The position numbers and the translations under genes are program-made. A stretch of DNA of 59,427 nucleotides, the filler included, from Squatina squatina (lineage: Eukaryota): the NCBI GenBank assembly GCA_031763465.1. It is 4 parts of 3 records of this genome, joined end to end, with 100 filler letters (N's around TTAATTAATTAA, not from the genome) between each part and the next. Parts side by side here need not be neighbours in the genome. Positions count along the whole stretch, not along the records: positions 13,915 to 29,222 come from JARFOE010000189.1; 3 more parts are not named here. One strand, given 5' to 3'. How positions within the stretch are numbered: the first letter of the stretch is position 1; each line of letters begins with the position of its first letter. Below, one piece after another: positions 3,639-29,222 of this stretch. The notes beneath the pieces were generated by a model. It did not search any database and was not told the origin of the DNA. It saw only the letters and a list, made by a program, of their open reading frames with translations.

Positions 3639-4061
3639 GAATAAGAGCAGATTCCTTCAGAAGAGGATAGGTTGTGTACAACAAGATACATACCATAATA
3701 CAACATAAAGTGGGATCCAAGAACAGCACCCAGCAGGGTCCAGCTTCTGGAATGGTTTCGCCATTTTCAGACATGTTTGACTGTGTGCCATTTAGATGTG
3801 TTCGATCAACACAATGATCATGTAGACACAGATTAACGCATGGGCCATTTGCAGGACATGGGTTCCAAACAAAGTAAAATATCAGTGCATTTACCACCAC
3901 TATGACAGAGCCTAGGGCATCGCCTAACACATGGAGAAAGACACCACGCATGTTCAGTTGCGATGCGGAGTCTTCTATATCTCCAAATTCATCACGATGG
4001 TCATCAAGAATAGAAATCCCATTCAGTTGCAGGCCCTCCATACTATTCTCCCTCAGTAGAT
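3639..4061 (-). CDS. SLC30A1: Zinc transporter 1 (ZnT1), coding exon 2, 3' part lost in gap
   Basis: Acceptor ttttaaacag|AT at 4061. Translation DLLRENSMEGLQLNG...QLNMRGVFLHVLGDALGSVIVVVNALIFYF...GPCWVLFLDPTLCCIMVCILLYTTYPLLKESALI matches the ZnT1 TM5-TM6 region, including the HxxxD zinc site and the Cys-rich loop. Confidence 0.97.
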
Positions 4062-5022
4062 CTGTTTAAAACAAAACACATTATTAGACACAACAGAAGT
4101 GTTTAAAGATCTGCAGCATTTCTTTCTCCCTCTCATCACCTTTTGAAACTCCAATTTAAATTTACTACTCCTTGATTTCCCATATAAAACACCATTCTTT
4201 AGGACTACAGACAGACAACCTACTGAAAAGCCCACCGTCAATAGTATGTTTGAACCAGGCACTGAATGTTCAGAGCTTGATCTACCACAGGATTTGTCCT
4301 TCATATAATACTTATTTAAAATGAAAAAACAAAACACATTCATAGCATTTAAACACACACACCTAAATCAAATGAGATTTCCACTTACTAATGTGTTAAA
4401 TATTTAATCATAGAGCTAATTAAATGAAGTTTGCAATAAGAGTCATTGGGAGAGGCAAAGGAGTTGAAAATGTTCTTTTCCCCTCTGAATCTTGGCAATG
4501 ATGGGATGGAACTTGCTTTTTCAAAGAATATGAGGAGATTTAGGAAATGGCTACTAAATTGGCAATTCNNNNNNNNNNNNNNNNNNNNNNNNNNNNNNNN
4601 NNNNNNNNNNNNNNNNNNNNNNNNNNNNNNNNNNNNNNNNNNNNNNNNNNNNNNNNNNNNNNNNNNNNAAATTACACCAAGACATCGCCAGGTAACGCTA
4701 CAGAAACAAGCTCGGGATCGAACCCTTACTATAATTCATAAGTTTTCTTCATTGGATTTTTTTCTGTGGACATAGCGTCGAATTCGGTACAGATAATGCC
4801 ATGACATTTTACTACGAGCAAATTACAACCAATCGATAAAAAAAACATTCCCAGGGATGTCACAAAGTGGAAAAAAACGGTTTTGATTGCTCTTCTAGAT
4901 CGTGGTTCCTGTTTCAGTGATTTCGAGCCCGACTCTGGAGTTGTTCTCCAGTTACGGTCACATCACATCCCCAGGGTTTTCCATTTGCACAAGACAACAA
5001 TACAAAAAAAAAGTGCATCTAC

Positions 5023-5492
5023 CGTTCACAAGCCGGGGGTCGCCGCAGCGCGGACCGAAGCCGTCCTGCTTGTCGGGGCTGACGCCGTTGATGGCGCTGC
5101 CGCTATTGACCAAGATGTTGATCTCCTCCTGGTTCAGGCTCGTCCCGTTGCCGGACAGCTTCTCGGCATCGCCCCTCTTCTTCCTGCGGAGCCAGTGGCC
5201 GCTCCGGGAGCCCGAGACGTGGGTGTGCGAGTGTCCGTGGGCCGCCGCCCCTCCTTCTCCCCCACCTCCTCCTGCTCCCCCGCCGCCGCCGCCGTGGAAC
5301 ATGCAGAGCCCCAGCAGGTTGACCAGCAGCCCGGCGGCTCCTACCCCGATCACCACCACCGCGTTCTGGATCTCCCGCGGCTCGCTGAAGCGCTCGATGG
5401 CCTCCAGCACGATGGTGAAGCAGAGCGCCGTCAGGAAGACGGCGTTGACCAGCGCGCCCATCACCTCAGCTCGGATCCAGCCGAACGTGTTC
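5023..5492 (-). CDS. SLC30A1: ZnT1 coding exon 1, 5' part lost in gap
   Basis: NTFGWIRAEVMGALVNAVFLTALCFTIVLEAIERFSEP...HGHSH (CDF signature and His-rich loop). Donor AAC G|gtagat at 5023, phase 1, joins exon 2 in frame as GAT (Asp). The exon is GC/CpG-rich. Confidence 0.97.
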
Positions 5493-6521: not shown

Positions 6522-6681
6522 ACCTAGTTTGACATTATGTTGCCCATCAAGAAAGACATTAGCAGGTTTCAGATCTCTGTGTAGCACTGTGCGACCACTT
6601 TCACTGCGTCTGTGACATTCTCGTAGGGCCAGAGCTAACTGAGCAAGTACACGCAAGGCAAAATCTTCCTCCAAATACCGC
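6522..6681 (-). CDS. NEK2: NEK2 kinase-domain exon with catalytic loop, truncated by gap
   Basis: Acceptor gtcttgcag|G at 6681. RYLEEDFALRVLAQLALALRECHRRSESGRTVLHRDLKPANVFLDGQHNVKLG, ending just before DFG. Confidence 0.95.
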
Positions 6682-7054
6682 CTGCAAGACAAATATGGAT
6701 TTTTAAAAAATAAAAAACAGTACTCTTGAAAATATTCAATAAGAAAAATTTCATAATATTTCTACAGCTCAGGAATTTTAAATAAAATATGCAACTCTGA
6801 AACCAAACAATGCAGGCAACACTGTCCACTCTAAAGGGATTATCCTCACCTATTATTATCTGTTGCAGCTCAAGTGTTATCTTAATTATTTAGCATATTG
6901 GAAATAATGTACTCTGGGAAGTTACAGTCCTTTATTCTTATTTTTTTTCTAGTGTCCTATTTTCTGCCTGGTGTTCATTCTGCTGGGACACAATCCCACA
7001 GTTACTATCCTGATTCCTCACCCAAATGGCTATTTTTAATTCATTAAAAAAAAT

Positions 7055-13814: not shown

Positions 13815-13914
13815 NNNNNNNNNNNNNNNNNNNNNNNNNNNNNNNNNNNNNNNNNNNNTTAATTAATTAANNNNNNNNNNNNNNNNNNNNNNNNNNNNNN
13901 NNNNNNNNNNNNNN
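13815..13914. other. Artificial scaffold-junction linker N44-TTAATTAATTAA-N44
   Basis: 12-mer with stops in all six frames at 13859-13870, centred in exactly 100 positions; the same structure occurs three times in the window. Confidence 0.95.
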
Positions 13915-14057
13915 AGGATGAACAGGGAGCAGAGGGGGAGCAACAGGGGGCAGAGGAGAGGAGGAAGAAGGAGCAGAGCAGGAGGAAGAGGGGGCTGTGA
14001 AGGAGGAGGAATAGGGACAGAGGAGGAGGAACAGGGGGCAGAGGAGGTGGTAGAGGG

Positions 14058-14882
14058 GCAGAGGAGGACCACGGGGCAGAGGAGGAGGAAGAGAGAGCAG
14101 GCAAGGAGAAACAGGGGGAAGAGGAGAAGGGTGAGGGCGCAGAGGAAGGCGAGGCTGAGGAAGAAGCTGAAGGGGCAGCAGAAAGTGAAGAAGTGGAGGA
14201 AAAGATTGAAAGTGTGAAGGCGGAGAAAGCCGAGGCTGTCCCAGAGGAAGCAAAGGATCAGACCAAGGAAGAAAGTAAGGAGGAGGAGGAAGCAGCCAAG
14301 GAGGAAGAGGCTGGTGAGGAGCCTGAAAAGGAAGCCATGGAAGATGGAGCTGCTGGAGACCAGGAGGATGCAAAGAAGGGTGAGGAAGTGGCAGAGGAGA
14401 AGGTCGTTTGTGAGAAAAAAGTTGAGGAAGTCGAAGAGGGAAAAGAAGCGCCAAGTGAAGACAAGTCACTGAAAGATGAAGACAAGGCAGAAGCTGAGGA
14501 CAAGAAAGATGATGCAAAGTCAAAAGATGAAGGCACAACCATCAATGGGGAGGCTGAGGGCAAGGCTGAGGAGGGAGGGGAAGACACGGATGAAAAGGAG
14601 GAAGACTCGCAGATCATTTCCAATGGTGTAGACAAAAGCCCTTCAAAGGAGGATGCCTTTGACTTGGGGGTTCTCCACACAACGACAGCAACAAAAACAG
14701 TTCACAAAGTTCTGGATGAAGGTGACGGGACCACGAAACACATCAAGGAGATAACCAAGTCTGTCACGGTAACTCAGACGGTGGAGGAGGTAGAAGAGAC
14801 AGTCCAGGAGACAATAGTGTCCACCAAGACGGTCGAGAAGACCTCACATGCGGTGCTAAAGAAAGAGGAGGCCAACGAGTGA
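14058..14882 (+). CDS. NEFM: Neurofilament medium chain, Glu-rich tail (last exon, partial)
   Basis: E/K/A/G-rich tail ending SNGVDKSPSKE...EGDGTTKHIKEITKSVTVTQTVEEVEETVQETIVSTKTVEKTSHAVLKKEEANE*, matching the conserved NF-M C-terminal domain (ITKSVTVTQ...VSTKKVEK-TSHA). Confidence 0.92.
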   Translation, partial: AEEDHGAEEEEERAGKEKQGEEEKGEGAEEGEAEEEAEGAAESEEVEEKIESVKAEKAEAVPEEAKDQTKEESKEEEEAAKEEEAGEEPEKEAMEDGAAGDQEDAKKGEEVAEEKVVCEKKVEEVEEGKEAPSEDKSLKDEDKAEAEDKKDDAKSKDEGTTINGEAEGKAEEGGEDTDEKEEDSQIISNGVDKSPSKEDAFDLGVLHTTTATKTVHKVLDEGDGTTKHIKEITKSVTVTQTVEEVEETVQETIVSTKTVEKTSHAVLKKEEANE

Positions 14883-15419
14883 ACCAAAGCTCATGAAGCG
14901 AAGGGGATGGCACTTGACAGCTAAAGATGCATGGGTGTGACAGCTTTTATGGCCTTTGATGGGTTCTCCCTCGAGGAGCTCCAGACTTCCCGTCCTTTCC
15001 TTTTGTGCAATAGAAGAAACTGCATGCAAGTTAACAATGTGCCCTCCACAGTGCCGAAAAACAAGGAACCACCGAACGAACCTAAACAACACAACCGAAA
15101 ACCAAACTGCATGGAAGAAATATGCACCGAATCGTGACAAGCAACACACATGTCCAAGAGAAGTTCTCTCGATCTGCTGGAGGGGCACTTTTGAGAAAGT
15201 CGAAAGATGTATTATGCAAAGAGTAAACTGAGCCAAAAAGTTTTTAAAAAACTAAAAAAAATAATCCTTAGCCTTAAACAGCTCATATTGATTAATATAT
15301 GTTTACCTCACGAGTGCTATTACAATGGACTTCCATTGGTGGGAGGGAGGATCGAGTGATCTTTCACCAATATGCCACAGTTTATCACCCCATGTGAAAC
15401 TTCACTGCAGTATTTGCTG

Positions 15420-15425
15420 AATAAA
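15420..15425 (+). promoter_or_regulatory. Probable NEFM polyadenylation signal
   Basis: AATAAA about 540 nt after the NEFM stop, followed by a GT/T-rich downstream element (cttgtttattg). Confidence 0.6.
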
Positions 15426-15930
15426 AGTCATATTCCAAAACTCAATGCCTTGTTTATTGATTTGAAAAAAAATAGGTGGAAGAGGGAGGAAGGGTCTCAT
15501 TAACAGAGCTTGTGACTACTTTTCCCTTCAGTTGGATTTCAAAAGCACACAAGTAGAGAAGCGAGAGATGGTTTCAATGGTGGGTGCAATCTCTGAACAG
15601 ATTTGTTCCCTGGAACAAGTCTTTGTTCTCCCAATGGTGCCAAATAATGAAGGGAATCTTAGTGACAGGGTCGGTACAGGAAGATGCTATTGCTGAGTTT
15701 GAAGACTGATGAGGCAAGTTTCAATATTGGGTTCATGTCGTTGGGGAAAAAGTTGTAAAGTGTTTCATAACAGTTGCCCATAAGGTGCAAATGTTTGAAA
15801 TCATCTCAATGGAAGTCAGAATTTCTATCTNNNNNNNNNNNNNNNNNNNNNNNNNNNNNNNNNNNNNNNNNNNNNNNNNNNNNNNNNNNNNNNNNNNNNN
15901 NNNNNNNNNNNNNNNNNNNNNNNNNNNNNN

Positions 15931-16070
15931 ACAGCACTGTGGGAGCACCTTCACCACATGGACTGCAGCGGTTCAAGAAGGAGGCTCATCACCACCTTCT
16001 CAAGGGCCACTAGGGATGGGCAATAAATGTCGGCCTTGCCAGCGACGCCCACGTCCCATGAATTAATGAA
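15931..16070 (+). mobile_element. LINE 3' end (CR1/L2 superfamily)
   Basis: ORF end [15 protein letters not shown] followed by gggcaataaatg...gacgcccacgtcccatgaattaatgaa. Confidence 0.6.
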
Positions 16071-16159
16071 TGTCAAATAAAAAATACTGTTTGGAACCCG
16101 GCGTCCTGCGCATGGGCCAGCTTTCAAAATACGTCCCAAATTACAAAGAGGATCCTTAC

Positions 16160-16301
16160 CGTACAGCTGCTGAATGGCTTTTCTGTCTGTCCGATCCAGC
16201 TCCATGCTTCTGCCCACCGCACTGTAGTTGGGCTGCATTATTGACCCCCTGCTGTATATATGAGGCAAGCCCAAGACATGCCCTATCTCATGGACGGCCA
16301 C
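16160..16301 (-). CDS. MMP21-like matrix metalloproteinase, zinc-binding catalytic exon (142 nt)
   Basis: Acceptor cactttttttag|GTG, donor TAC G|gtaagg. [48 protein letters not shown] has HExxHxxGxxH, the Met-turn SIMQP and the MMP21-type DRKAIQxLYG. Orthologue versus paralogue is unresolved. Confidence 0.9.
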
Positions 16302-16379
16302 CTAAAAAAAGTGAGGGAAATGCACAGACCATGGTTATTCCATGTTATGTGGGGAACTTGGGCTCTGAATCACAGCATC

Positions 16380-16673
16380 CTACATCACAGGAGGTGACCA
16401 TTCGGCCCATCGTCTCTGTGAAAGAGCGATCCAATTAATCCCACTCTCCCTGCTCTTTCCCCATAGCCTGCACGCTTTTCCCTTCAAGTATTGATCCAAT
16501 TCGCATTTGAAAGTTGCTATTGAATCTGCAGCCAGCAATTTTTGAGGCAGATCACTCCAGATCATCATAACACGCTGTGGAAAAAAACGGTTCCGTATGT
16601 CACCTCTGGTTCTTTTCCCAATTACCTTAAATCCGTGTCCTCTGGTTATTGGCCCTGCTGCTACTGGAAACAG
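16380..16673 (-). mobile_element. CR1 LINE 3' end inside the MMP intron
   Basis: Antisense ORF end ADSIATFKCELDQYLK plus the CR1 tail. Confidence 0.8.
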
Positions 16674-16675
16674 TA

Positions 16676-17143
16676 TGGGCGGCCAATTAGCACTCCGGCG
16701 TTAGTGCTAAATGGGCATTAGGGGTCAACGCCCGTTTTTGCCACTAAATTGAAATTTGCGATATTGGCTTAAGTTTAGCACTGGCGCTAAATGGGCACTA
16801 ATCAGGAGCGCTAGAAAAGTGGCGCTAGGCGCAAAACGGCCTCCGCGATGTCATCAGAGGGCGCACCACTCAAAATGGCCGCCCGACAAAGAATTGGCCT
16901 CAATTCTCTGGGCACTAAACGGACGGTGACAGCGCCTGGTCTTTTGGGGCGGTGACACCCGTGCTTACATTTCTATTAGGGCGCAAAATCATTGTGCATC
17001 ATTCCCTACCTTTTTTGATGCATAAATCCCCGTCGAGAGACCATAAAAAGCGTTTACTTCGTTATGCGTGACTTGAAGCAGCCATTTTTTGGAATTTTGG
17101 TGATTTTGGGTGACCTCTTGGAAAATGCAAAAATCGGGCTATT
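16676..17143. mobile_element. Terminus of a GC-rich Harbinger-like non-autonomous element
   Basis: Begins gggcggccaattagc and repeats gcgctaaatgggc motifs; the reverse-complement terminus ccaattagccgccc is at ~32872-32886. Confidence 0.5.
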
Positions 17144-17339
17144 NNNNNNNNNNNNNNNNNNNNNNNNNNNNNNNNNNNNNNNNNNNNNNNNNNNNNNNNN
17201 NNNNNNNNNNNNNNNNNNNNNNNNNNNNNNNNNNNNNNNNNNNCAATTTTTGTTTGTATTCTAGATTCCAGCATCCGCAGTATTTCGCTTTTGTATTGTT
17301 GCACAGTATTCATTATTGTTACAGGGAACATGCGCAGAA

Positions 17340-17774
17340 ATGATCGCTTGATACTGGGATGAGAAGTTTGTCTTCTGAGGAGAGATTGAGTAGATTGGGC
17401 CTCCGCTCTCTTGAGTTTAGAAGAATGAGAGGTGATCTCATTGAAACATACATGATTCTGAGGGGGAATTGACGGGGCAGATGCTGAGAAGTAGTTTGCC
17501 CTGGCTGGAGAGTCTAGAACCAGGGGTCATAGTCTCAGGATAAGGGATTGGCCATTTAAGACTGAGGTGAGGAGGAACTTCTTCACTCAGGGTGAGTCAC
17601 TGAGTATATTCAAGGCTTAGAAAGACCTTTTAGACTCTGGGAGAATCAAGGGATAAGATGATCTGGCGGGAAAGAGGAGTTGAGGTCGAAGGTCAGCCGT
17701 GATATTATTGAATGGAGGAGCAGGCTTGAGAGGCCGAATGGCCCACTCCTGTTCCTAATTCTTATGTCCTTATA
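17340..17774 (+). mobile_element. CR1 LINE 3' end
   Basis: LSRLGLRSLEFRRMRGDLIETY-type ORF2 end and the ggccgaatggcccactcctgttcctaattcttatg tail. Confidence 0.85.
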
Positions 17775-18105
17775 CAGTTCACGCGTATGGTAACAATTGT
17801 ATTCAGTAGTCAATATACACAGAAATTATTGCAGATAAAGTCAACACACAAAGAATTAGTAACAATCGTTACTGGTGAATCAGCATGAGCAGCAATAATT
17901 CTCTTCATGCAGGAATTCAAACTGAATAATAGCTATTTATCTATATATTAACTTTAATTCTGTTTGTTCTGTCCTGTCCATCTTCCCAATGTATCAGGTA
18001 GGAGCTTTCTAATTGGTTGAGCTTAGATTGAATCCTTCTGATAGGCTGAGATCTGTTCTTTATGATTGGTTCAGTGTTTTTGTTGTTTGTTGTTGCGCTG
18101 CTCAC

Positions 18106-18276
18106 CTTGCCAGTGGTGCCTGTAGTCGCAGGCACGGGTCAGGGCGATCATGGCTGCGATGTACAAGGGCATTAACATCACACACAGTCTCCAGCCTTTT
18201 CCACGGCCCCTTGACGTGAAGCAGTGGAGCTTCCCTCCCAGGTAGAAAGCTGTGAACCCCAGGCCGGCAAAAGCAA
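18106..18276 (-). CDS. PLPP5: Phospholipid phosphatase PLPP4/5 family exon (171 nt), PLPP5 by neighbourhood
   Basis: Acceptor ctactcgcag|TT, donor CAA G|gtgagc. [31 protein letters not shown]...[14 protein letters not shown] carries the PAP2 C3 motif. PLPP4 cannot be excluded on sequence alone. Confidence 0.8.
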
Positions 18277-20604
18277 CTGCGAGTAGAGTTGAAAGAACAA
18301 GATTCAAAAGACGATTCTGCCTGCCCAACCCGCCTTCCCTCCCAGGCACAAGGTGCTATGTCCATTCGGGAATAAAGGTGAAGGGTCAAAGCCAACAGCC
18401 CAGAACACCTAAGATTGGGAAAAGGAAAGTCAGGGAGGTCAATACCAAGGAGTTACACTTGTGGGCTTGGAAAAGAATGAATATACCAGTGTGCCCAAGA
18501 AATGCTGTAAGCTTTACAGCTCTGACTGCTCACGTGGCAAGTCACTGCCCTCATGCACAGTTGTGCTGTGTTACTGGGCACGACAATCCTCTCCAAAGAG
18601 CTATTTAGACAAGCCACGGCAAGACGCTTGGGAGCAAGTCACCAAGTCCTATCGCCCTGCCTGGGGAATGGCATGCAGTCACTGCTGCCACCAGCATTTT
18701 AGCAAAACACAGGTCGTATGCCTTATGAAATGTTCAGATGATGATGACTTGAACTGAGACAGCAACCCATTAGGTTAAGTCTTGTTTGTCAAAGCATGGC
18801 TTGCACCCAGCTGCAGACTTGTCCACAAGTGTTGGGAGTCTGCCACTTTGAAGGCAACAACTTGAGTTGATGCATTTAGAGCATCTCAGTGACATTTGGT
18901 CACATGAAACACTTGATATTTTTCTTTGCTTAAAAGGATATCACTATTAAAATGCTTGAAAGAACTGTGACATACAGAATGNNNNNNNNNNNNNNNNNNN
19001 NNNNNNNNNNNNNNNNNNNNNNNNNNNNNNNNNNNNNNNNNNNNNNNNNNNNNNNNNNNNNNNNNNNNNNNNNNNNNNNNNCCACAGACAGCCCTCTGCC
19101 TCCTCCCTCAACTGTCCATTTTTCATATGTCAGCTCACCCGTGAGGGGCTGCGTGCTATTCGATCATGACCACTTCCCAGTTGACTTTCAAGCACAGCCA
19201 TCAGCAGAGCGACTTATCTCCTCCTCCTCCTCCCCCCCAGCCCCTCTATCCCAATTGGCCAAGATCAGGTAATGGGCAGGAATCAAACCTGGCACTTTCT
19301 GTGCTGCAACCAGGCAATGTAGCTCACCAAATTTACCCATCCTTTTCATGATTCTATGCATTAAGCCCACGTCGATCTCCCATTCTATTTGGTTACTATT
19401 CCTACATTCAAATATGCTGCTCCCATTCCAGGGTTTGGTCTCAACTGAAACTCATTGCCTCCTTTCATCATGCATTCTCCACCTCACTCAAGCCGCCCTT
19501 CTCCCCTGTAGCCCACACTTGACTCGACTGAACTTAACTCCCCCATCAAGTTTCCCCACACCATCTCCAATGACCTGGATATCTACCAGGTTATCATTTT
19601 CCCCCCCATATATACCCACAAAACTGCCTGTTCTCATGAGCAAAACCCATACCACCCAAGAACCTGGACCTGACCAAAACATTGTTATCGACAGTAATGC
19701 TATTACTTCTGTTGTAGATGTGACTTGGGCCCCTCTTCCCCCAAACACCTTTACAAGTGTCCCCTGTTGAAACCAGTGGTAAATCTGGACTATTTGGGTA
19801 AAGTATAGATCAGATCCAACACTGATGGCAGTAAATTGCTAACAGTAATATGCAGACATGCCCAAAAGTCCTCAGAACGTGACCACTCTACAGGCTAAAA
19901 ATACCAATTCAATTTATTTACAGATAAAATACACAAAGAGTAAGACACAATGTTACTATTCCACTCTTGGCTCTGAGCATACCCACTTACAATTGCCACC
20001 AACAGGTCATGAGTGCCGTACGTGATCAATGTCAATCAAGTTCTCTGTCCCTTTGCACCATCATTCTCAACTCCAATTGGTTGATATTTGCCCCAACCTC
20101 TTACTTTATCAAGGATGACCTGTGGTACCTGGAATAAGCTGACAGAAAAACATGAATAAACCAACAGAGATAAGCCCCAAGTGCATCTGGGAATGGTAAG
20201 TGGACAGATCCAATTCCAACAATGACTGATATCAGAACTGATAATAATGACCAGAAACAAAGTTACTTTGCTCAGTTGGATATAAAATGGTACGGCATGA
20301 CTTCTCACAAATATCAAGTTCAATTTCAAAACAGCGGTTGCCTTTTATAACGAGCAGTAATTTATGTTGAATTTGGGCAAATGTCTGTGACATTAGAGGT
20401 GGAAAATACTAGAAAGAGGCAAAAGAGAAAACTTCAATACGCAACTCGTCAAATAAATGTCTTAAAACCCCTAAACGGATTTACAAAACCCGAAGAAAAA
20501 TAGCTAATGAGAATTAGCAGACCATGAAAGCAGAAATTTGCAAGCTCATGAAAACACAGCACAATTATGTTCACAAATATGAAGTAGAGCGACCAATTCC
20601 AGCT

Positions 20605-20610
20605 TTTATT
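20605..20610 (-). promoter_or_regulatory. Candidate ASH2L polyadenylation signal
   Basis: AATAAA on the minus strand about 780 nt after the ASH2L stop; a second candidate lies near 19915. Confidence 0.35.
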
Positions 20611-21384
20611 ACGGGATAGTGGCATCCAAATACAAGACTGCTTTGAGTGCACCCCATTTTGACTGATGGACCTCTGTCTGGCCTTCTTCCCATGGCCGTG
20701 AACCCACCCCGCCACAACATTCCTGCACAAGTATCGAATCACATTCACAAACCACACAGTGAGACGAGGCTTTTGCAGCATTTTTGTAATCTAATTCCTT
20801 CAATTACGTAGCTCCTCTTATTAACTTGTTTTTGTTTGTTTTGATGCAGAATTGGGCCCAAGTTTGCTGTCCTCCTGGTGCCCCTTCATTGAGCAGTTAG
20901 TTAAGTGACGGATGGTTAGGATTCCATGAAGCCGAATGCTTCTATGCTAATTAAATACCACTGTCATCGATCCAAGGCACTTAACAGCACAGGACCCATT
21001 CAATACCGAGAGTACACCACTCCATCCTATGCGTTGTTCAGCTTCAGGAAATGTATCATTGGGAGGCAGCAATCACATGTGACCAGACGATTGTGCTTGG
21101 GTCGTGGTTGGGGTGGGGAGGAGGAGGACGGAGGAGCAAAGAGCTCTTGTAACAGATCTGTACACATGACTTACACATGTATGCTGGCAATGGCACCAGG
21201 TAGAACAGTAATGGTGAACACTGGGGTTGGCTCACCTAAACCCAAGTACACTGACACGACGCCAACGTTGTTTGAGCCCAACATGATGGTTCCTGGTTCA
21301 AGTATCACTTCCATTAGGGTTAAGCTGCCCACAACTTCTTCAGCTACTTCTGAAGTCCCAGGGTTTCTCTGCATTAAAACGGAG

Positions 21385-21525
<141 letters not shown>

Positions 21526-22519
21526 TTAGTGGCGGGAGCTCCTGAAAATTGCAGCAGGAGCCTGCATGTGTCATCAGGTTTTNNNNNNNNNNNNNNNNNN
21601 NNNNNNNNNNNNNNNNNNNNNNNNNNNNNNNNNNNNNNNNNNNNNNNNNNNNNNNNNNNNNNNNNNNNNNNNNNNNNNNNNNNNNNNNNNNNNNNNNNNN
21701 NNNNNNNNNNNNNNNNNNNNNNNNNNNNNNNNNNNNNNNNNNNNNNNNNNNNNNNNNNNNNNNNNNNNNNNNNNNNNNNNNNNNNNNNNNNNNNNNNNNN
21801 NNNNNNNNNNNNNNNNNNNNNNNNNNNNNNNNNNNNNNNNNNNNNNNNNNNNNNNNNNNNNNNNNNNNNNNNNNNNNNNNNNNNNNNNNNNNNNNNNNNN
21901 NNNNNNNNNNNNNNNNNNNNNNNNNNNNNNNNNNNNNNNNNNNNNNNNNNNNNNNNNNNNNNNNNNNNNNNNNNNNNNNNNNNNNNNNNNNNNNNNNNNN
22001 NNNNNNNNNNNNNNNNNNNNNNNNNNNNNNNNNNNNNNNNNNNNNNNNNNNNNNNNNNNNNNNNNNNNNNNNNNNNNNNNNNNNNNNNNNNNNNNNNNNN
22101 NNNNNNNNNNNNNNNNNNNNNNNNNNNNNNNNNNNNNNNNNNNNNNNNNNNNNNNNNNNNNNNNNNNNNNNNNNNNNNNNNNNNNNNNNNNNNNNNNNNN
22201 NNNNNNNNNNNNNNNNNNNNNNNNNNNNNNNNNNNNNNNNNNNNNNNNNNNNNNNNNNNAAACATTAATTTGGGATCCCTTCTAATTGTTAATTCAAATA
22301 GGCTGAAGGAAATGAATTATTTCAAGCCAGCTTGAAAGCTCATTTGTAATGAGCTATGTTTTATTATATCAAGCCATGCGGACAAGGCAAGTTTGCAAGT
22401 TCGATCTCTGGTCTCCACTGAGCAGGTTGGGCTCAACTGGATTAGAATTTGGTGGCATTATAATTGGCCCCACTGCCCCTATTGCCAAGGAGTAGATAAT
22501 CACCTAGGATTTTTGATAG

Positions 22520-22880
22520 ATTGAAGATTGAAGTATTTAGATAGAGTAAATAAGGAAAACCTGTTTCCAATGGCTTAAGGGTCGATAACCACAGGGCACA
22601 GAATTAAGGTGATTGACAAAAGAACTACAGTCGACATGAGGAAAAACTTCTTTGTGCAGCATGTGGTTAGGTTTTGGAGTGAACTGTCTGACAGGGTGGT
22701 GGACACAGATTCAATAGTCGCCTTCAAAAGGGAATTGGATAAAAAATGAAAGAGAAAAAAAATTGCAGGATATGGGGAGAGAGCGGGGGAGTGGGACTGA
22801 CTGGATCGCTCTTCGAAAGAGCTGGCACAGACTCGATGGGCCGAATGGCCTTCTGAGTTGTACTATTCTACGATTCTATA
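22520..22880 (+). mobile_element. CR1 LINE 3' end
   Basis: ORF2-end remnant and the gggccgaatggccttc...ttctacgattcta tail. Confidence 0.8.
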
Positions 22881-23159
22881 AACATGTGAAAAGGACGAGT
22901 ACTTCAATCAAGGACAGTGAGTTATCACGCTCTGTGCTGTTGAGCAGTGAAACCGCAATGAACGGTCTTCATGTGCGCAATTCAAACACTGGTCACCTGG
23001 GTCTTTGGTCATCGATATTCCATGAATATGTGAAAGGGAGTGGTGGGTGGAAATTGGACCATTATAGATGATCAATGCTGCTGATGCATTAGTGAGAGAA
23101 AGCTGCTGCCAGCAACACCTCGTTCTAGCACATGTCCCAACTTCCAATGCTGTACTTAC

Positions 23160-23258
23160 TGTGCAGTTCTTGTACAAAGAAATTGCAGGATGATACACAC
23201 CGGCATACACATTTTCATAGGCAGTTCCTTCATTCTCTCCATTCTTATAAAATATCAT
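23160..23258 (-). CDS. ASH2L: ASH2L SPRY-domain exon (99 nt)
   Basis: Acceptor cctgatcag|ATG, donor ACA|gtaagt. [33 protein letters not shown]. Confidence 0.93.
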
Positions 23259-23319
23259 CTGATCAGGAAAAAAATATACTTAATGATTCAGCCAAGACAT
23301 CAGTTTTAGCAAGTCCAGT

Positions 23320-23790
23320 TTGGAAGAATAGGTGGTGATCTCACTGAAACATAAAATTAAGGAGCTTGACTGGATAGGCGCTGGGAAGATATTTCCCCTG
23401 GCTGGGGGAGTCTAGAACCAGGGGTCACAGTCTCAGAATAAGGGGTCNNNNNNNNNNNNNNNNNNNNNNNNNNNNNNNNNNNNNNNNNNNNNNNNNNNNN
23501 NNNNNNNNNNNNNNNNNNNNNNNNNNNNNNNNNNNNNNNNNNNNNNNATTTCTCATCATCCCAGACATAAACTGCCGACCCCTTATCCTTAAACAATGAT
23601 CCCCAGTTCCAGACTCTCCAACCAGGAGAAACAGCCTCTCAGCATCTATCCTGTCAAGCCCTCTAAGAATTTTATACGTTTCAATAAGATCAGCTCTCAT
23701 TCTTCTAAACTCCAGAGAGTATAGGCTCATTCTACTCATTCTCTCCTCATAGGACAACCCTCTCATCCCAGGAATCAATCTAGTGCATCT
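23320..23790. mobile_element. Two CR1 ORF2-end fragments (+ before the gap, - after it)
   Basis: Minus-strand translation TRLIPGMRGLSYEERMSRMSLYSLEFRRMRADLIETYKILRGLDRIDAERLF. Confidence 0.85.
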
Positions 23791-24064
23791 AGTTTCCTGC
23801 CACATCCATGTCCTTCCAGTGCTGGATACCAGCAGGGATCCATCAGCAATCTCTCAAGTACTGGAGGCAAATTTCACCTTGTCTCAGGCTTAAAGTTTAA
23901 AAGCCAGAGTAGCTGGGTTACGCAGTGACACATCTTTGCTGAGATAAGGTTCGTTGCTCAGTGCACAGACTCCACTCCGATTACAGCCACCACTTCGATT
24001 GCGTCTCCACTTTACCAGCATGCAATTGCACCTCTCGTCTTCTTACATGCAGCAGGATTCTTAC

Positions 24065-24160
24065 CTGGTCTAGCAGTCCAAACTTGGGGTACTCTTCCTG
24101 TGGGTCCTTGCTACCTGGATCTGGGTTCTCCTTCACCAAGAACACATCCCGCTCTTTGGT
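24065..24160 (-). CDS. ASH2L: ASH2L winged-helix-region exon (96 nt)
   Basis: Acceptor aaatttcag|ACC, donor CAG|gtaaga. [32 protein letters not shown]. Confidence 0.94.
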
Positions 24161-24489
24161 CTGAAATTTCAGAGACATCCCAGATCGGTTATGGGCTCCG
24201 CAAATTATCTCAACTGCAACAACCAGGTGGTAAAGAATTAAGACAAAAGCTTTTTGTACTTCATTGTAACACCTGCCTTCAACCTGTGGTAACAGTTGCT
24301 AGCTCTGCCACTGAGCTACTTGTATCTGGTTACTCAGTGTGGTCCCTCTCCCCAGATGCCAAGAACCCATGTGATGAGGCAGTACATTCTTTGAAGGGTT
24401 GTGTCAATCACCGCAAAGGGTACAATTTAAAAAGTTACAATACCAGCACAGAGCAAGCAAGGAACCTGCAATAATGCACACTTTGTGCA

Positions 24490-24583
24490 TCCCCACTTAT
24501 TTTGCCCCAAATCTGGCGGCCATGCCTCCAACCAAATAGGCCCTACGCTCTGGAATTTCCTCCCCAAACCTCTGCATCTCTCT
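24490..24583 (+). mobile_element. L2 LINE 3' fragment
   Basis: ggcggccatgcctccaaccaaataggccctacgctctggaatttcctccccaaacc is homologous to 28400-28455. Confidence 0.6.
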
Positions 24584-25904
24584 NNNNNNNNNNNNNNNNN
24601 NNNNNNNNNNNNNNNNNNNNNNNNNNNNNNNNNNNNNNNNNNNNNNNNNNNNNNNNNNNNNNNNNNNNNNNNNNNNNNNNNNNGGATGGATTCCATCAAT
24701 GGCAGGAAATATTTGCATATTCTTTTTTTTTAAGTAGAGCTGGTGGCTTGGAGAAGACACATGGGCTGATCTACAAGCCCAGCTGGAGAGCTTCCAGGAC
24801 CAAAGTTCCTCACTCTGGAGGAAACCACACGGTGTGCCTTAAATGTCCATCTCAAATTGGGCATCATCTCCTGTTAAGGCAAAACAAAAAGGTGTTCAGT
24901 GATCTTTTAATTATTCCAAGTTCAAGCAATGGTCAGATGACTGTCGTTTTCCTGCCCACCCCCACTCCCCCCCACCCAATCCCTCCATTCCACCCTCCAC
25001 CCCCAATCTATTCAGATGGTGCTCACTTTTGGTTCCACAAGCTAGCGCAAGCCTCCAATACCTCGTCCAATTTCTCATTCTTCACATGACTCGCAAGGGC
25101 AAATTTGGTTGCCTATCTGACCAGGAAGGAAGCACCACAGCACAGTCACATCCCGCGTTCCTCACACTCACCCATGGACGGGTCATCATGAGTCCTACTG
25201 GTGTTCCCCCTTGTGAGCCCATCAACATTGATGGGATCAACCAATTCAGCATGTGCTGTGAATCCAGCCTGGGAGTTATTGGTCCACCCGGCTTTGTAGG
25301 ACACTGGGTGGTTACTCACATTGGGTGAGTTTGAGGGAGATCATCAACCAAATTCTCTCCATTTTAGATTTCAACACTTATACAGAGTGTACAGGATTAG
25401 TAACCATGACAAAACATTAAATCATGATATGCCCAATTAATAACCTGGGCATAAAAACCAAGTACACAACAGATTTATGCCCAGGGTCCTTCCCCCTGCT
25501 CCTACATTAAACACACACACTTCCCTACCTCAGCCATGCTACCCAGGTTGGGGAGGCAGCAGCTTTCACACAAGGAGATCGAGACCGAGTGATCCACTGA
25601 TCACGAACATTTCACCACAGCGCTGGCTGTGATTTGGATAAACAGCACAGCCACAATCCATCTTGGTCGTGAACAGTTTGGTCAGGAGATTGAGAACAGC
25701 TGCTTGAGAAAGGAAACACGCTTTAACCATCTCAAGTTGCTCATTCCAAAGTGACAGAGCTGTTATACAGTGGTGCCTCCAGTTTGGACGGACTAAATCT
25801 ACAACAGTGCTGATGTTAAGCGGATGATACAAACTATTATCCTTGTCCTCAAATGCGTCCTTCACTGAAATCTGAGTTGCACTCCGGCCTCCGTTATTAC
25901 TTAC

Positions 25905-26078
25905 CGCCAGCTGCCTTCTCCTCATGGCTGTTCGCATGGTTTGCTGCCGGCTTCACCTTCTCTGTTGTACTCGGACTCGTGACACCCGGGATGTTTGGAA
26001 GGTCCCGCGGAGGAGTCCTGGCCACAGGGGAATTGCGGCATTCCATGAGGAATTTGCGGTCATAAATAATGCGGGTGC
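25905..26078 (-). CDS. EIF4EBP1: eIF4E-binding protein exon 2 (174 nt), 4E-BP1 by sequence and synteny
   Basis: Acceptor ttgcag|GC, donor G|gtaagt. [35 protein letters not shown] has the YxxxxL-phi motif and the SP/TP phosphosites. It lies next to ASH2L on the same strand, as in human. Confidence 0.92.
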
Positions 26079-26642
26079 CTGCAACATAAAAGCAATCCAC
26101 TGATAAGGTCAACAGGGACTGAGTGTGTTTCGCCAGGCTGCGCTGCCACGACGAGAAGACACTTGCTGTTGGAAACTTTTTTTGGCAACAAGAGACCAGA
26201 ATGTTCTGGTTGGATCCCCGGCCTGTCAATGGCACAGTAGTGTGAAGCACTTTTGAATCAGCCAGGGATCCTGTGGAGTTCACAACCCATTCTACTTGAA
26301 GTGTTCAGCCCACCAGACTAAGCACTGCAGAATACTCATCAGTTCAATACATAAATACCATGCATATTTGAAAATCTGTAGTTTGCCTTAAAAATTCACT
26401 CTCCAAAGGACCGCATTTCAAATGCTACTTTTAATTAACACCTCAAGGTCTTTATGATCTCGTGGTCCAATTCCCTGTCTGCATTGCCTTAGTACATTTG
26501 CTGTTTTCTTTCTGCCGTCCGCTCCCAAGAATTTCAATTTAGGTTCAACTCTCATGTCTTGTGGGAATCTTACCCTAGATATCTCCACCAGTTTTAGCAA
26601 AAGCAATACACACAGGAGGGGGAAACGGAGATGGAATCAAGA

Positions 26643-26840
26643 TAAGGTGACCAGACGTCCCGGTTTTGCTGTGACAGTCCGGTTTTTCATGAAACGCCCC
26701 GGTGTCCCGACAATTGTTTCAAAATTGCATAAATGTCACGGTTTTTATGTTTACTTGACTGCACTGTCCCGGCGGAGACCTGACTGCGCACGCGTAGACT
26801 GATTGTCCCAGTTTGGCAATCTTAAGATCTGGTCACCCTA
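26643..26840. mobile_element. hAT-Blackjack (MER94-like) non-autonomous MITE, 198 bp
   Basis: TIRs taaggtgaccaga and tctggtcacccta, repeated internal gtcccgg motifs, and an 8-bp TSD aatcaaga/aaccaaga (7 of 8). Confidence 0.85.
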
Positions 26841-27647
26841 AACCAAGAGTATATCTGAAAGGCAAGCCTGGCCAATTCAGTCCATCAAACAGACTTCAGT
26901 ATCTTGTTTCCGGCAGAGTCATGGCCATGCAACTGAAAGTTTAGTTCTGATGGTTTTCATAAACACGTGCGTGCTGTCTCTCTCACACACCCCATCTGCT
27001 TCCTTTCCCAGCCTTAGTCACTTATCAGCAGCAGACAGTGTTTTATGCTTATGGCTGTACTCTCAGTAGCACATGGAAAGTGTAACATTCTGCCAATCGC
27101 AATGTTGCAGAAGCAAGTCTTAGTGCAGCATCACAATTTCCATTATCTGAAGTCATGGAAGGGAGCACGCGGTGAAAACTATCAAAAATTGGGGTTGGGC
27201 GTATGTCCTGCAGGCACAGGATTGAAGGCAAGTGTGATCAAAACAGAAGAAATGTTACGTAAACCGCGCAGGAGGCAACTGCAAATGCAAGGCCTTGGCC
27301 TGTGAAAATGATGGCCAACAAACAGGAAGGTGGATAACTGGGGCATGGACAATGCAGGCCTCACGACAATACTGTCTGGGGTTTGGATTTGCAAAATATA
27401 GCGACTCATGCTGGGGTATGGCGATGGTACTTCACGTGGTAGCCGTAGGAGAAGATTGCACAGTGAGAGTGAAAAACTGGGGACTTAACTGGTGGGAGGG
27501 AGGGAATGGGGGAAAACATCACAATCAACCCAATTACCGAAACACATNNNNNNNNNNNNNNNNNNNNNNNNNNNNNNNNNNNNNNNNNNNNNNNNNNNNN
27601 NNNNNNNNNNNNNNNNNNNNNNNNNNNNNNNNNNNNNNNNNNNNNNN

Positions 27648-27760
27648 CTTGCTGTGCTTAAATTGGCTGCTGCGTTTACAACAGTGACGCCACTTCAAAA
27701 GTCCTTCATTGGCTGTGAAGGGCTTTGGGATGTCCTCAGGTTGTGAAAGGTGCTGCATTC
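27648..27760 (+). mobile_element. DeuSINE 3' tail
   Basis: cttgctgtgcttaaattggctgc...cttcattggctgtgaagggctttgggatgtcctcaggttgtgaaagg. Confidence 0.7.
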
Positions 27761-28298
27761 TTGTGGCAAAATAGAGAGACTTTTCCTGCGCAGCCGATGG
27801 TAGCATTTGCTGATGATGCTCAGAGACGGACGTGTTCCAGAACTGATACCCGTCACCTTAATGAGTCGGCAGTGCACTCCAATAAAAATTAAACAATGTT
27901 TATTTGGTTGAAAAATGATTAACAAGAAGATAAATAACTGACAGCAAGGACGAATTTTAATTCCTTTTTTAATACATGAACATTGCACGTGCCACGTGAT
28001 TCCACTTCCTATTCCTCTCTTCAGCAACATATCAGCAACATCAACAAACCAGTACAAAAATATTTTCTTCGCAATGAAAATATCTAACAGCAATTGTCAA
28101 TTCAAGATAAGAAAGGACAATACATTAATTAATTGATCTCGTTACTACATCTAGCAGTTATCTTACATTAAAATATATAAGGTATAAATTGACATATTGC
28201 ACAGCCGGAGCTGAGCAGCAATTGTGGAATACAAATACCCAGCACTTTATAATTCCTTAAAGGCCTGAAGGTGGATGAATAACCAACAGAAACATAAT

Positions 28299-28727
28299 GG
28301 GGGCAGTTTTAACCACCTGTTGGGAAACTAACGCTGGTTTTACTCTCTGCCTTCCAATTGTGGCCTCTTGGGCATCCCCTGATTTCCATCGCTCCACCAG
28401 TGGTGGCCGTGCCTTCAGCCGCCTGGGCCCGAAGCTCTGGAATTCCCTCCCTAAGCTCTGCTCCTTTAAGACGCTCCTTAAAACCCACCCCTTTGACCAA
28501 GCTTTTGGTCACCTGTCCCCCATGTCTCCTTACGTGNNNNNNNNNNTCGATGTTAAATTCTTTTGGTATCGCTCCTGTGAAGTGCCTTTTCTAAGTTAAA
28601 GGTGCTATATAAATGCAAGTTGTTGCCTGATTTTACTCTCCATTGAAGTCAACGGAGTGCGATAAGAAGACCGGCAATCCACCCAATCCCGGGGGTTCCC
28701 CGCCTGGGGATTTAGGTTAAACTTACC
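28299..28727. mobile_element. Harbinger-like MITE interrupted by an L2 3' fragment (28348-28626)
   Basis: TIRs ggggcagttttaacc and ggttaaacttaccc, core ctccattgaagtcaacggag, and a sister copy at 53441-53580. The L2 piece reads STSGGRAFSRLGPKLWNSLP and ends in the L2 tail. Confidence 0.7.
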
Positions 28728-29222
28728 CTTCAAAGACTTTCCAATTTATAATTTTCATTCTCATAGTAAGGGTTTTTCTCCTGTGAAATCGCTCATCCAT
28801 ATACCAAACGTCTCTGCAGACGTGATGTCTCATGTTTAGGAGTCCAATTAGTGGCAGAAGTAATGATGCTCTGCCCCAGGAGGCAGTTCGAAGAATATAT
28901 TTAAATTTTCTCCCCTCAAGGCACTTGCTGACGCTGAGGTTACAGCTCAACAAAAGCTCTCCAGCCCCACATTTAAGGAGCTTTTCTGCCTTTGTGAGCC
29001 TTAACGATGAGTGCAGACTATTTGATTGCAAGAACTGCCAGAGTAGAGCCTGCTCCTTCCCTCACCTGACTTCCATACAATTTCATCATAGGACACTGGA
29101 TAGCAATCAGGATTAGGGACCAAAGGCACTTTTTCCTTTTTCAAGCGTAGTAATGTTAAGGTAGTTTCAGCACCCACAGCCACCCAACCGAAATTGGCGA
29201 ATTGAACACAGACTACGGATCA

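Follow-up and report, generated by a model that had tools for sequence, protein, structure and literature searches.

Introduction

The matrix metalloproteinase MMP21 is encoded by a human heterotaxy gene and has been proposed to act as a flow-carried left-right signal (bioRxiv 10.1101/2024.10.13.618030). Its subfamily has been described by a PRCGxPD cysteine switch, an insert and an RxKR/RxRR furin site (PMC2656525). MMP21 has been stated not to have amplified in vertebrates and to be single-copy (PMC1867822), and a published catalogue gives one human gene in this group. A second MMP21-like gene of Xenopus, MMP N3, lies on a separate scaffold and was read as a possibly amphibian-specific duplicate (PMC2656525). 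Loss of Xenopus mmp21 alone is reported to result in heterotaxy, and work in frogs found the catalytic Glu to be dispensable and the zinc site to be needed. Reptiles are reported to have lost MMP21 along with the ciliated organiser. In nearly every vertebrate the Nodal-related gene Nodal2 has been located between EIF4EBP1 and ASH2L; it is described as absent from mammals and as kept in birds and reptiles.

An exon of MMP21 type is located in the window, by which we mean the whole analysed stretch of 59,427 nucleotides (filler included) from Squatina squatina assembly GCA_031763465.1. The original prediction regarded it as part of a second MMP21 ohnologue in a block of 8p-type genes. The analysis indicates, with a probability that we put at about 85%, that the exon is the intact zinc core of a distinct MMP21 paralogue, here called copy A, which is one of four that likely stem from two early genome duplications and encodes a predicted secreted, furin-activated zinc protease.

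Results and Discussion

The exon and its contig

The exon comprises 142 nt on the minus strand, with 47 open codons and one additional base, and is entered in phase 0 and left in phase 1 (Table 1). Its translation contains a stretch of 18 residues and DRKAIQQLY. The HExGHxxGxxH zinc motif and the Met-turn, a hallmark of family M10A, are present, and the exon matches Pfam Peptidase_M10 (E 2.4e-14, profile positions 112-158 of 159). In alignments to MMP14 and MMP2 the zinc helix, Met-turn, specificity loop and last helix were all matched. Thus, the predicted intact exon with canonical splice sites and Met-turn is borne out by the AG and GT borders, the open frame and the Pfam match. The closest database matches are five shark 'MMP21-like' proteins with 83-89% identity (56 of 58 candidates passed), and no MMP21 entry occurs among the 58 PDB sequences matched by the exon. 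With sawshark A 43 of 47 residues are identical, compared to at most 36 of 47 with any of 25 canonical MMP21 proteins. A look-up of sequencing runs with the exon listed no run and no RNA source.

The contig harboring the exon maps once, with 100% identity, to scaffold C189 (C189:1282281-1283493, at 1.282 Mb). It is flanked by gaps on both sides, as the original prediction had cautioned in stating that the exon sits on a contig of its own and that its adjacency comes from scaffolding. Four stretches were packed into the window, with joints at 13815, 29223 and 43385. As the neurofilament tail, the exon, the phosphatase, ASH2L and EIF4EBP1 are all located within stretch 2 (13915-29222), they follow the order of scaffold C189, which the packing did not create. 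Stretch 1 carries zinc-transporter and kinase exons on the minus strand (3640-5491 and 6522-6761), which we take to be SLC30A1-like and NEK2-like and which have no relation to copy A.

Table 1. Position of copy A and neighboring features in the window, and of related pieces elsewhere in the assembly
Feature	Position	Strand	Remarks
Neurofilament gene, Glu-rich last exon	14001..14882	+	tail-to-tail with copy A
Contig with the zinc exon	15931..17143		100-N gaps at both ends; high-copy repeat ~16676-17143
Donor GTAAGG, phase 1	16154..16159	-	fits phase-1 acceptor of next exon (unplaced contig C802935)
Zinc-binding exon of MMP21 copy A	16160..16301	-	three zinc His, catalytic Glu, Met-turn, S1' loop, last catalytic helix; inside shark clade A, 100/100
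Acceptor, polypyrimidine tract and AG, phase 0	16302..16345	-	fits phase-0 donor of preceding A-type exon (unplaced contig C380997)
PLPP4/5-type phosphatase exon	18188..18355	-	assigned to PLPP5 by context of its paralogue; Atlas: PAP2-family lead only
ASH2L exon, SPRY domain piece	23148..23258	-	E 0.0018, below curated cut-off
ASH2L exon	24065..24172	-	PDB ASH2, E 2.5e-14
ASH2L-EIF4EBP1 interval, Nodal2 site in other vertebrates	24300..25899		100-N gap 24584-24683
EIF4EBP1 exon 2	25900..26079	-	PDB 4E-BP1, E 4e-22
MMP21-type zinc exon	C189:6.596 Mb		68%
MMP21-type zinc exon	C692795, unplaced		68%
MMP21-type zinc exon	C46:8.305 Mb		cut by a gap
A-type piece, start of exon 2	C273406
A-type piece, exon before the zinc exon	C380997
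A-type piece, exon after the zinc exon	C802935
A-type pieces, last two exons	C956086, C673648		ending in TGA

Four MMP21-type genes and their neighborhoods

A genome search with the exon gave nine matches from 14 candidates, namely four MMP21-type zinc exons, including the exon in the window, and five exons of other MMPs. A full-length query likewise recovered the last exon and the penultimate one in four copies each. The four genes occupy four related neighborhoods: M beside EDRF1, UROS and DOCK1, A (the exon in the window) beside NEFM, PLPP5, ASH2L and EIF4EBP1, D beside DOCK2 and UBLCP1, and C beside dysferlin and MOGS. The proposed 'second' ohnologue is therefore one of a set of four. The assembly consists of 1.15 million contigs with approximately 45-66% N in the fetched regions, and copies M, C and D also lack some exons in it. 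In copy D, six residues are inserted close to the end of the first hemopexin exon (C46:8308192-8308470).

Copy M is located at C189:6.587-6.604 Mb. The distance between its large exon and a UROS exon (HEM4 over the cut-off) is about 1 kb, EDRF1 lies on the side opposite UROS, and a DEAH-helicase, presumably DHX32, follows; a DOCK1-type exon is found 0.28 Mb away. A motif search of C189:6.65-6.85 Mb, a region with 62% N, did not reveal ADAM12. A genome-wide Pfam search for UROS was empty, yet its last exon was found locally beside M, so that blanks in genome searches of this assembly carry little weight. The exon in the window is not MMP21 itself: canonical MMP21 is the separate gene M between EDRF1 and UROS. 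A single MMP21 locus beside UROS, to which the exon would map, is thus contradicted by the different MMP21 exons that adjoin UROS, and the proposal of a separate paralogue in an 8p-type block stands.

Within 200 kb of scaffold, copy A is accompanied by a GDA1/CD39 exon and a neurofilament gene on one side and by a PLPP exon, ASH2L, EIF4EBP1, a Rho-BTB gene, PEBP and a BAR gene on the other, which we take to be the human 8p genes ENTPD4, NEFM, PLPP5, ASH2L, EIF4EBP1, RHOBTB2, PEBP4 and BIN3. For NEFM, RHOBTB2, PEBP4, BIN3, ENTPD4, ADAM19, SOX30 and CYP26B1 Pfam gives the family level, and the gene names are presumed; WDR11 and BAG3 were recognised by eye, their families being unconfirmed by Pfam. 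All human map positions used for the loci are likewise our assumptions. The neurofilament gene was called NEFM on the presumed identity of its tail, and its long first exon is located just beyond the window (C189:1277460-1278368; Filament, E 1e-80).

Two PLPP4/5-type exons are present in the genome (both of two candidates). The second one, at C189:5.29 Mb, sits amid MCMBP (Pfam) and DDHD-domain exons as well as BAG3-like and WDR11-like exons, and we take MCMBP, SEC23IP and WDR11 to reproduce the human PLPP4 order. As this paralogue occupies the MCMBP-SEC23IP-WDR11 context, the phosphatase in the window was assigned to PLPP5, a distinction that Atlas did not make. The possibility that the phosphatase near the exon is PLPP4 in a 10q26-like context did not hold, the PLPP4-type context being at 5.29 Mb instead, 1.3 Mb from M.

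Copy D is surrounded by DOCK2 (PDB), UBLCP1, an ADAM gene with zinc motif and an HMG-box gene, the latter two presumably ADAM19 and SOX30 of 5q33-35. The neighborhood of copy C rests on one placed exon, around which a P450, dysferlin, a semaphorin, an intermediate-filament gene and a family-63 glucosidase were found; the P450 is presumably CYP26B1 and the glucosidase MOGS of 2p13. The divergent filament gene at this locus (C1:23.99 Mb, L089:1723-2859, minus strand) has one long first exon, is 42% identical to the A-side gene and is arranged tail-to-tail with C as NEFM is with A. Atlas named it to family level only, and it may be a further neurofilament/internexin ohnologue. Pieces of a URGCP-like very large GTPase spread over several frames also occur near copy C (C1:24.016-24.019 Mb, L091:5822-9021, plus strand). 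Paralogous flanking genes thus connect A with M (PLPP5/PLPP4), D with M (DOCK2/DOCK1-type) and A with C (neurofilament-type), all within one scaffolded assembly.

State of copy A in this assembly

The exon in the window is the only placed exon of A. Five further A-type pieces were located on unplaced contigs (Table 1); all of them are open, and they are mostly 76-92% identical to sawshark or sevengill A. Splice phases agree from C380997 to the last exon. No exon 1 was found in the assembly, nor was most of exon 2, and a genome search for the cysteine-switch and furin part of exon 2 gave three matches from 14 candidates, all of which belong to the other copies. The exon on C802935 (232-495, L039) is mixed: the 5' half resembles copy A and the 3' half copy C, with the switch at a motif common to both. 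This is probably an assembly collapse at the shared motif; gene conversion is the alternative. Intactness is consequently observed for the exons that are present and inferred for the whole A gene, as the switch and furin part is missing and C802935 is half C-type.

The missing exons, the mixed exon and a contig that was joined across gaps of unknown size could also be explained by a decaying remnant of A in Squatina, or by an erroneous placement of the contig during scaffolding. We regard this as most improbable. The placed exon and the five pieces are open and close to their shark orthologues, the assembly is fragmented and N-rich enough to deprive M, C and D of exons as well, and the tail-to-tail neurofilament layout recurs at copy C. 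This recurrence is the best in-genome argument for a correct placement of the exon's contig and weakens the concern that it is misplaced.

Origin of the four copies

Sequences were obtained by three protein searches (two of which gave the best 120 of 502 and the best 120 of 563), a profile-library search and name look-ups. The trees comprise chosen subsets of about 350 retrieved proteins, 86 in FastTree and 50 and 39 in IQ-TREE; two short rows were dropped, and most teleost and frog rows were omitted as redundant. All of these trees yielded four clades, and the IQ-TREE runs with different taxa agree. In the 39-protein tree the support (UFBoot/SH-aLRT) was 99/98 for M, 100/99 for A, 100/98 for C and 99/97 for D, with C and D as sisters at 100/97. 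Every clade contains cartilaginous and bony vertebrates in roughly species order. Copy A groups with MMP21 and the MMP21-like proteins of cyclostomes and amphioxus, apart from other MMPs, and is positioned outside the mammalian MMP21 clade. Single Squatina exons take their expected places in A, M, C and D, and the window exon is found within shark A (100/100), nearest to the sawshark and sevengill-shark proteins. In a 400-column tree the amphioxus root landed within bony-vertebrate M, so that M is not one clade there. Clade HMM scores mis-sorted the short pieces C10119 and C273406 with respect to their identities, and for this reason short exons were assigned by tree. A duplication confined to sharks was also considered, and the constraint uniting shark A with shark M was rejected (p-AU 8.5e-9).

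Four clades that predate the split between sharks and bony vertebrates, together with pre-duplication outgroups, agree with the proposed whole-genome-duplication paralogue. The pairing of M with A, which is expected under two doublings, was recovered in the best tree with a support of just 37/71, and both alternative placements of A, M and C+D survive (p-AU 0.26 and 0.21). Such a result would also suit a segmental or same-chromosome duplication that copied MMP21 early, ahead of the shark/bony split, with a later move of A and without any whole-genome duplication. The same can be said of the location of A and M, which are 5.3 Mb apart on C189 and share one chromosome in two lamniforms, white shark and basking shark (P0350/P0352 and P0003/P0076). 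Such an origin is nevertheless highly improbable: A and M are on different records, distinguished by length, in ten of the 12 species with chromosome-scale records for both (Heptranchias, Heterodontus, Scyliorhinus torazame, sterlet, beluga sturgeon, Erpetoichthys, Polypterus, Protopterus, Rhinatrema and Bombina), their flanking genes are paralogue pairs, and the four copies are about equally diverged, with 56-59% identity in the sevengill shark (Heptranchias). In addition, the Nodal and Nodal-related blocks have been published as products of genome duplication.

Two early genome duplications are therefore the preferred origin. The records that carry the four copies of Heptranchias measure 53.47, 53.38, 198.6 and 74.0 Mb, and in several species A is found on a record of 10-25 Mb. 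In Bombina, A and D share one 1160 Mb record; the same species has near-identical C-type records, P0168 and P0311, on different chromosomes (1167 and 1451 Mb). In Squatina the 8p-type segment (C189:1.2-1.4 Mb) and the 10q26-type segment (5.2-6.9 Mb) occur on one scaffold. Two sister chromosomes from a genome duplication may later have fused in lamniforms, with C189 either sharing this fusion or having been ordered on such a genome.

Distribution of copy A

Copy A was found in sharks, rays, bichirs, sturgeons, paddlefish, lungfish, caecilians, frogs and tuatara. Retention in cartilaginous fish had been proposed, but A is not confined to them, given its presence in bichirs, sturgeons, lungfish, caecilians, frogs and tuatara. 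All four copies are kept in Heptranchias (sevengill), Carcharodon (white shark), Bombina (fire-bellied toad) and Squatina squatina. Among the matches listed, clade A includes no mammal, teleost, bird, turtle, crocodile or squamate, and the two named mammals and eight named teleosts in the 86-protein tree all belong to M. For human, this agrees with the single gene of the published catalogue. For the elephant shark (Callorhinchus, P0068), canonical MMP21 alone was retrieved among the matches listed. Three teleost models (P0037, P0129, P0328) fuse UROS to MMP21; these are probably annotation artefacts of the tight head-to-tail linkage, with read-through as the alternative.

The tuatara protein (Sphenodon punctatus, P0315/P0343), which is termed 'Matrix metallopeptidase 21' in UniRef, falls into clade A. 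It is the only MMP21-type gene of tuatara, and the only sauropsid MMP21-type protein, among the matches listed. The assumption that it represents true MMP21 was rejected when it was forced into M (p-AU 8.7e-5).

Protein features and the loop after the Met-turn

Each of the 12 A proteins from sharks and rays carries the PRCGVPD cysteine switch, the furin site and the MMP21-type catalytic-domain Cys, and hemopexin repeats were detected in them where scanned. The extra catalytic-domain Cys (H-L/F-G-C) occurs in all 21 A proteins and also in the A-type exon on C380997. The cysteine switch was found in three of nine bony-vertebrate A models. It is absent from P0007, P0161, P0307, P0316, P0164 and P0171, and in Rhinatrema the motif is aligned with Pro in place of Cys; either these genes have truly lost latency control or the gene models are at fault. 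The AlphaFold model of sevengill-shark A (P0058, mean pLDDT 72), an orthologue of the window's protein, fits MMP catalytic domains with an rmsd of about 2 Å and also hemopexin domains.

The loop that follows the Met-turn lines the S1' pocket of MMPs. A loss of Trp in this loop had been predicted. The residue is indeed absent from the exon, but it does not mark the paralogue: Trp is present in 21 of 25 M proteins and also in 6 of 21 A proteins, and it is missing from coelacanth MMP21 as well. It was consequently rejected as a marker of clade A, being relaxed rather than diagnostic. Other positions separate the clades more clearly. Pro at Tyr+2 is found in 25/25 M, 14/14 C and 3/3 cyclostome proteins and in 2/21 A proteins, Gly at Tyr+4 in 18/21 A and 2/25 M, and Phe before Glu-Leu in 23/25 M and 0/21 A. 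This Phe corresponds to the one with which the specificity loop of MMP14 and MMP2 ends, and the Trp position is just ahead of the last helix. Across clade A the loop was thus remodelled by loss of Pro and Phe and gain of Gly at unchanged length. These changes are a better basis than Trp for the suggestion that the S1' pocket or substrate preference of A may be altered relative to MMP21, which is a reasonable inference from the alignments.

Proposed role of copy A

Based on the biochemistry of MMPs, the zymogen of A is predicted to be cut by furin in the Golgi and secreted in its active form; the His triad encoded by the exon would hold the zinc and the Glu would activate water. Substrates would most likely be selected by the remodelled S1' loop and the hemopexin domain. 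We lean slightly towards a role of A as a diverged extracellular protease that would not do the job of MMP21 as a flow signal at the ciliated left-right organiser. This is suggested by tuatara, which keeps A while reptiles reportedly lost MMP21 with the organiser, and by Xenopus, in which loss of mmp21 is not covered by the second MMP21-like gene.

The neighborhood of A raises the alternative that the copy has the same origin but shares a left-right role, in the organiser or early embryo together with its neighbor Nodal2, as a back-up for MMP21 or in its place. About 8-10 kb of scaffold separate A from the ASH2L-EIF4EBP1 interval, the site of Nodal2 in other vertebrates, and both genes are missing from mammals, among the matches listed in the case of A, and present in a reptile. 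Furthermore, one review reports Dand5 to be missing from most of the sharks and all of the rays that it examined, which hence have a different left-right module. A shared role seems unlikely to us, as linkage by genome duplication does not imply a common function, Nodal2 is reported in birds and reptiles whereas A was found in tuatara alone among the matches listed, and the S1' loop is remodelled. The Squatina interval (Table 1) contains no assembled TGF-beta domain, and none of 33 genome TGF-beta matches is on C189. An unplaced 620-bp contig (C1133705, L133) carries a mature-domain exon that we take to be of Nodal type.

A bolder version of this alternative, which we consider quite improbable, holds that the duplications copied a linked left-right module, with MMP21 and Nodal1 on the 10q-type chromosome and A and Nodal2 on the 8p-type one. 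A would then be a Nodal2-side laterality protease with its own substrate pocket, still acting where the organiser was remodelled, as in Dand5-less sharks and rays and in tuatara.

Comparison with known systems

A four-member family revises the view of MMP21 as a single-copy gene, three copies having apparently been lost on the way to mammals. Tables of presence and absence of left-right genes can be misread where paralogues carry the label 'MMP21', as in tuatara. Four natural MMP21 variants with conserved loop differences also provide a means to ask which surface carries the signal. The proteins themselves are already in RefSeq as 'MMP21-like'. The interpretation of A as a hidden ohnologue is well supported, and the quartet, the mislabelled tuatara gene and the Nodal2 neighborhood add to its interest. 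Neither an MMP21 quartet nor the tuatara case was met with in the full-text literature searched, though figures or supplements, such as those of the Nature Genetics study of the left-right module or of Kajikawa et al., may already show MMP21-like paralogues or the tuatara.

Canonical MMP21, as represented by guinea pig (P0018), coelacanth (P0010) and Squatina M, and copy A have the zinc motif, Met-turn, exon borders and furin site in common, as well as the long insert after the cysteine switch, the extra catalytic-domain Cys and the hemopexin domain. They share approximately 57% identity in the trimmed alignment of the sevengill shark. A differs in forming a separate clade at a separate locus and in the Pro, Gly and Phe positions of the loop. 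The RefSeq and UniRef entries 'matrix metalloproteinase-21-like' of sharks, rays, bichirs, sturgeons, lungfish and amphibians include the A orthologues; the one label spans clades A, C and D and some true MMP21, and some clade-A genes are named MMP21 (tuatara P0315/P0343, Microcaecilia P0008).

Xenopus MMP N3 has been held to be possibly amphibian-specific, whereas the MMP21-type trees presented here consist of pan-gnathostome clades. The Kazald1-4 quartet (PMC12955574) is a case of the same kind in different genes, namely overlooked ohnologues of two duplications with differential loss; the paper on it has 0 occurrences of MMP21, and sharks are described as keeping two Kazald genes, compared to all four MMP21-type genes. 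The hidden paralogy of Nodal1 and Nodal2 (PMC12344233, bioRxiv 10.1101/483974) is likewise of the same kind, and Nodal2 belongs to the block that adjoins copy A.
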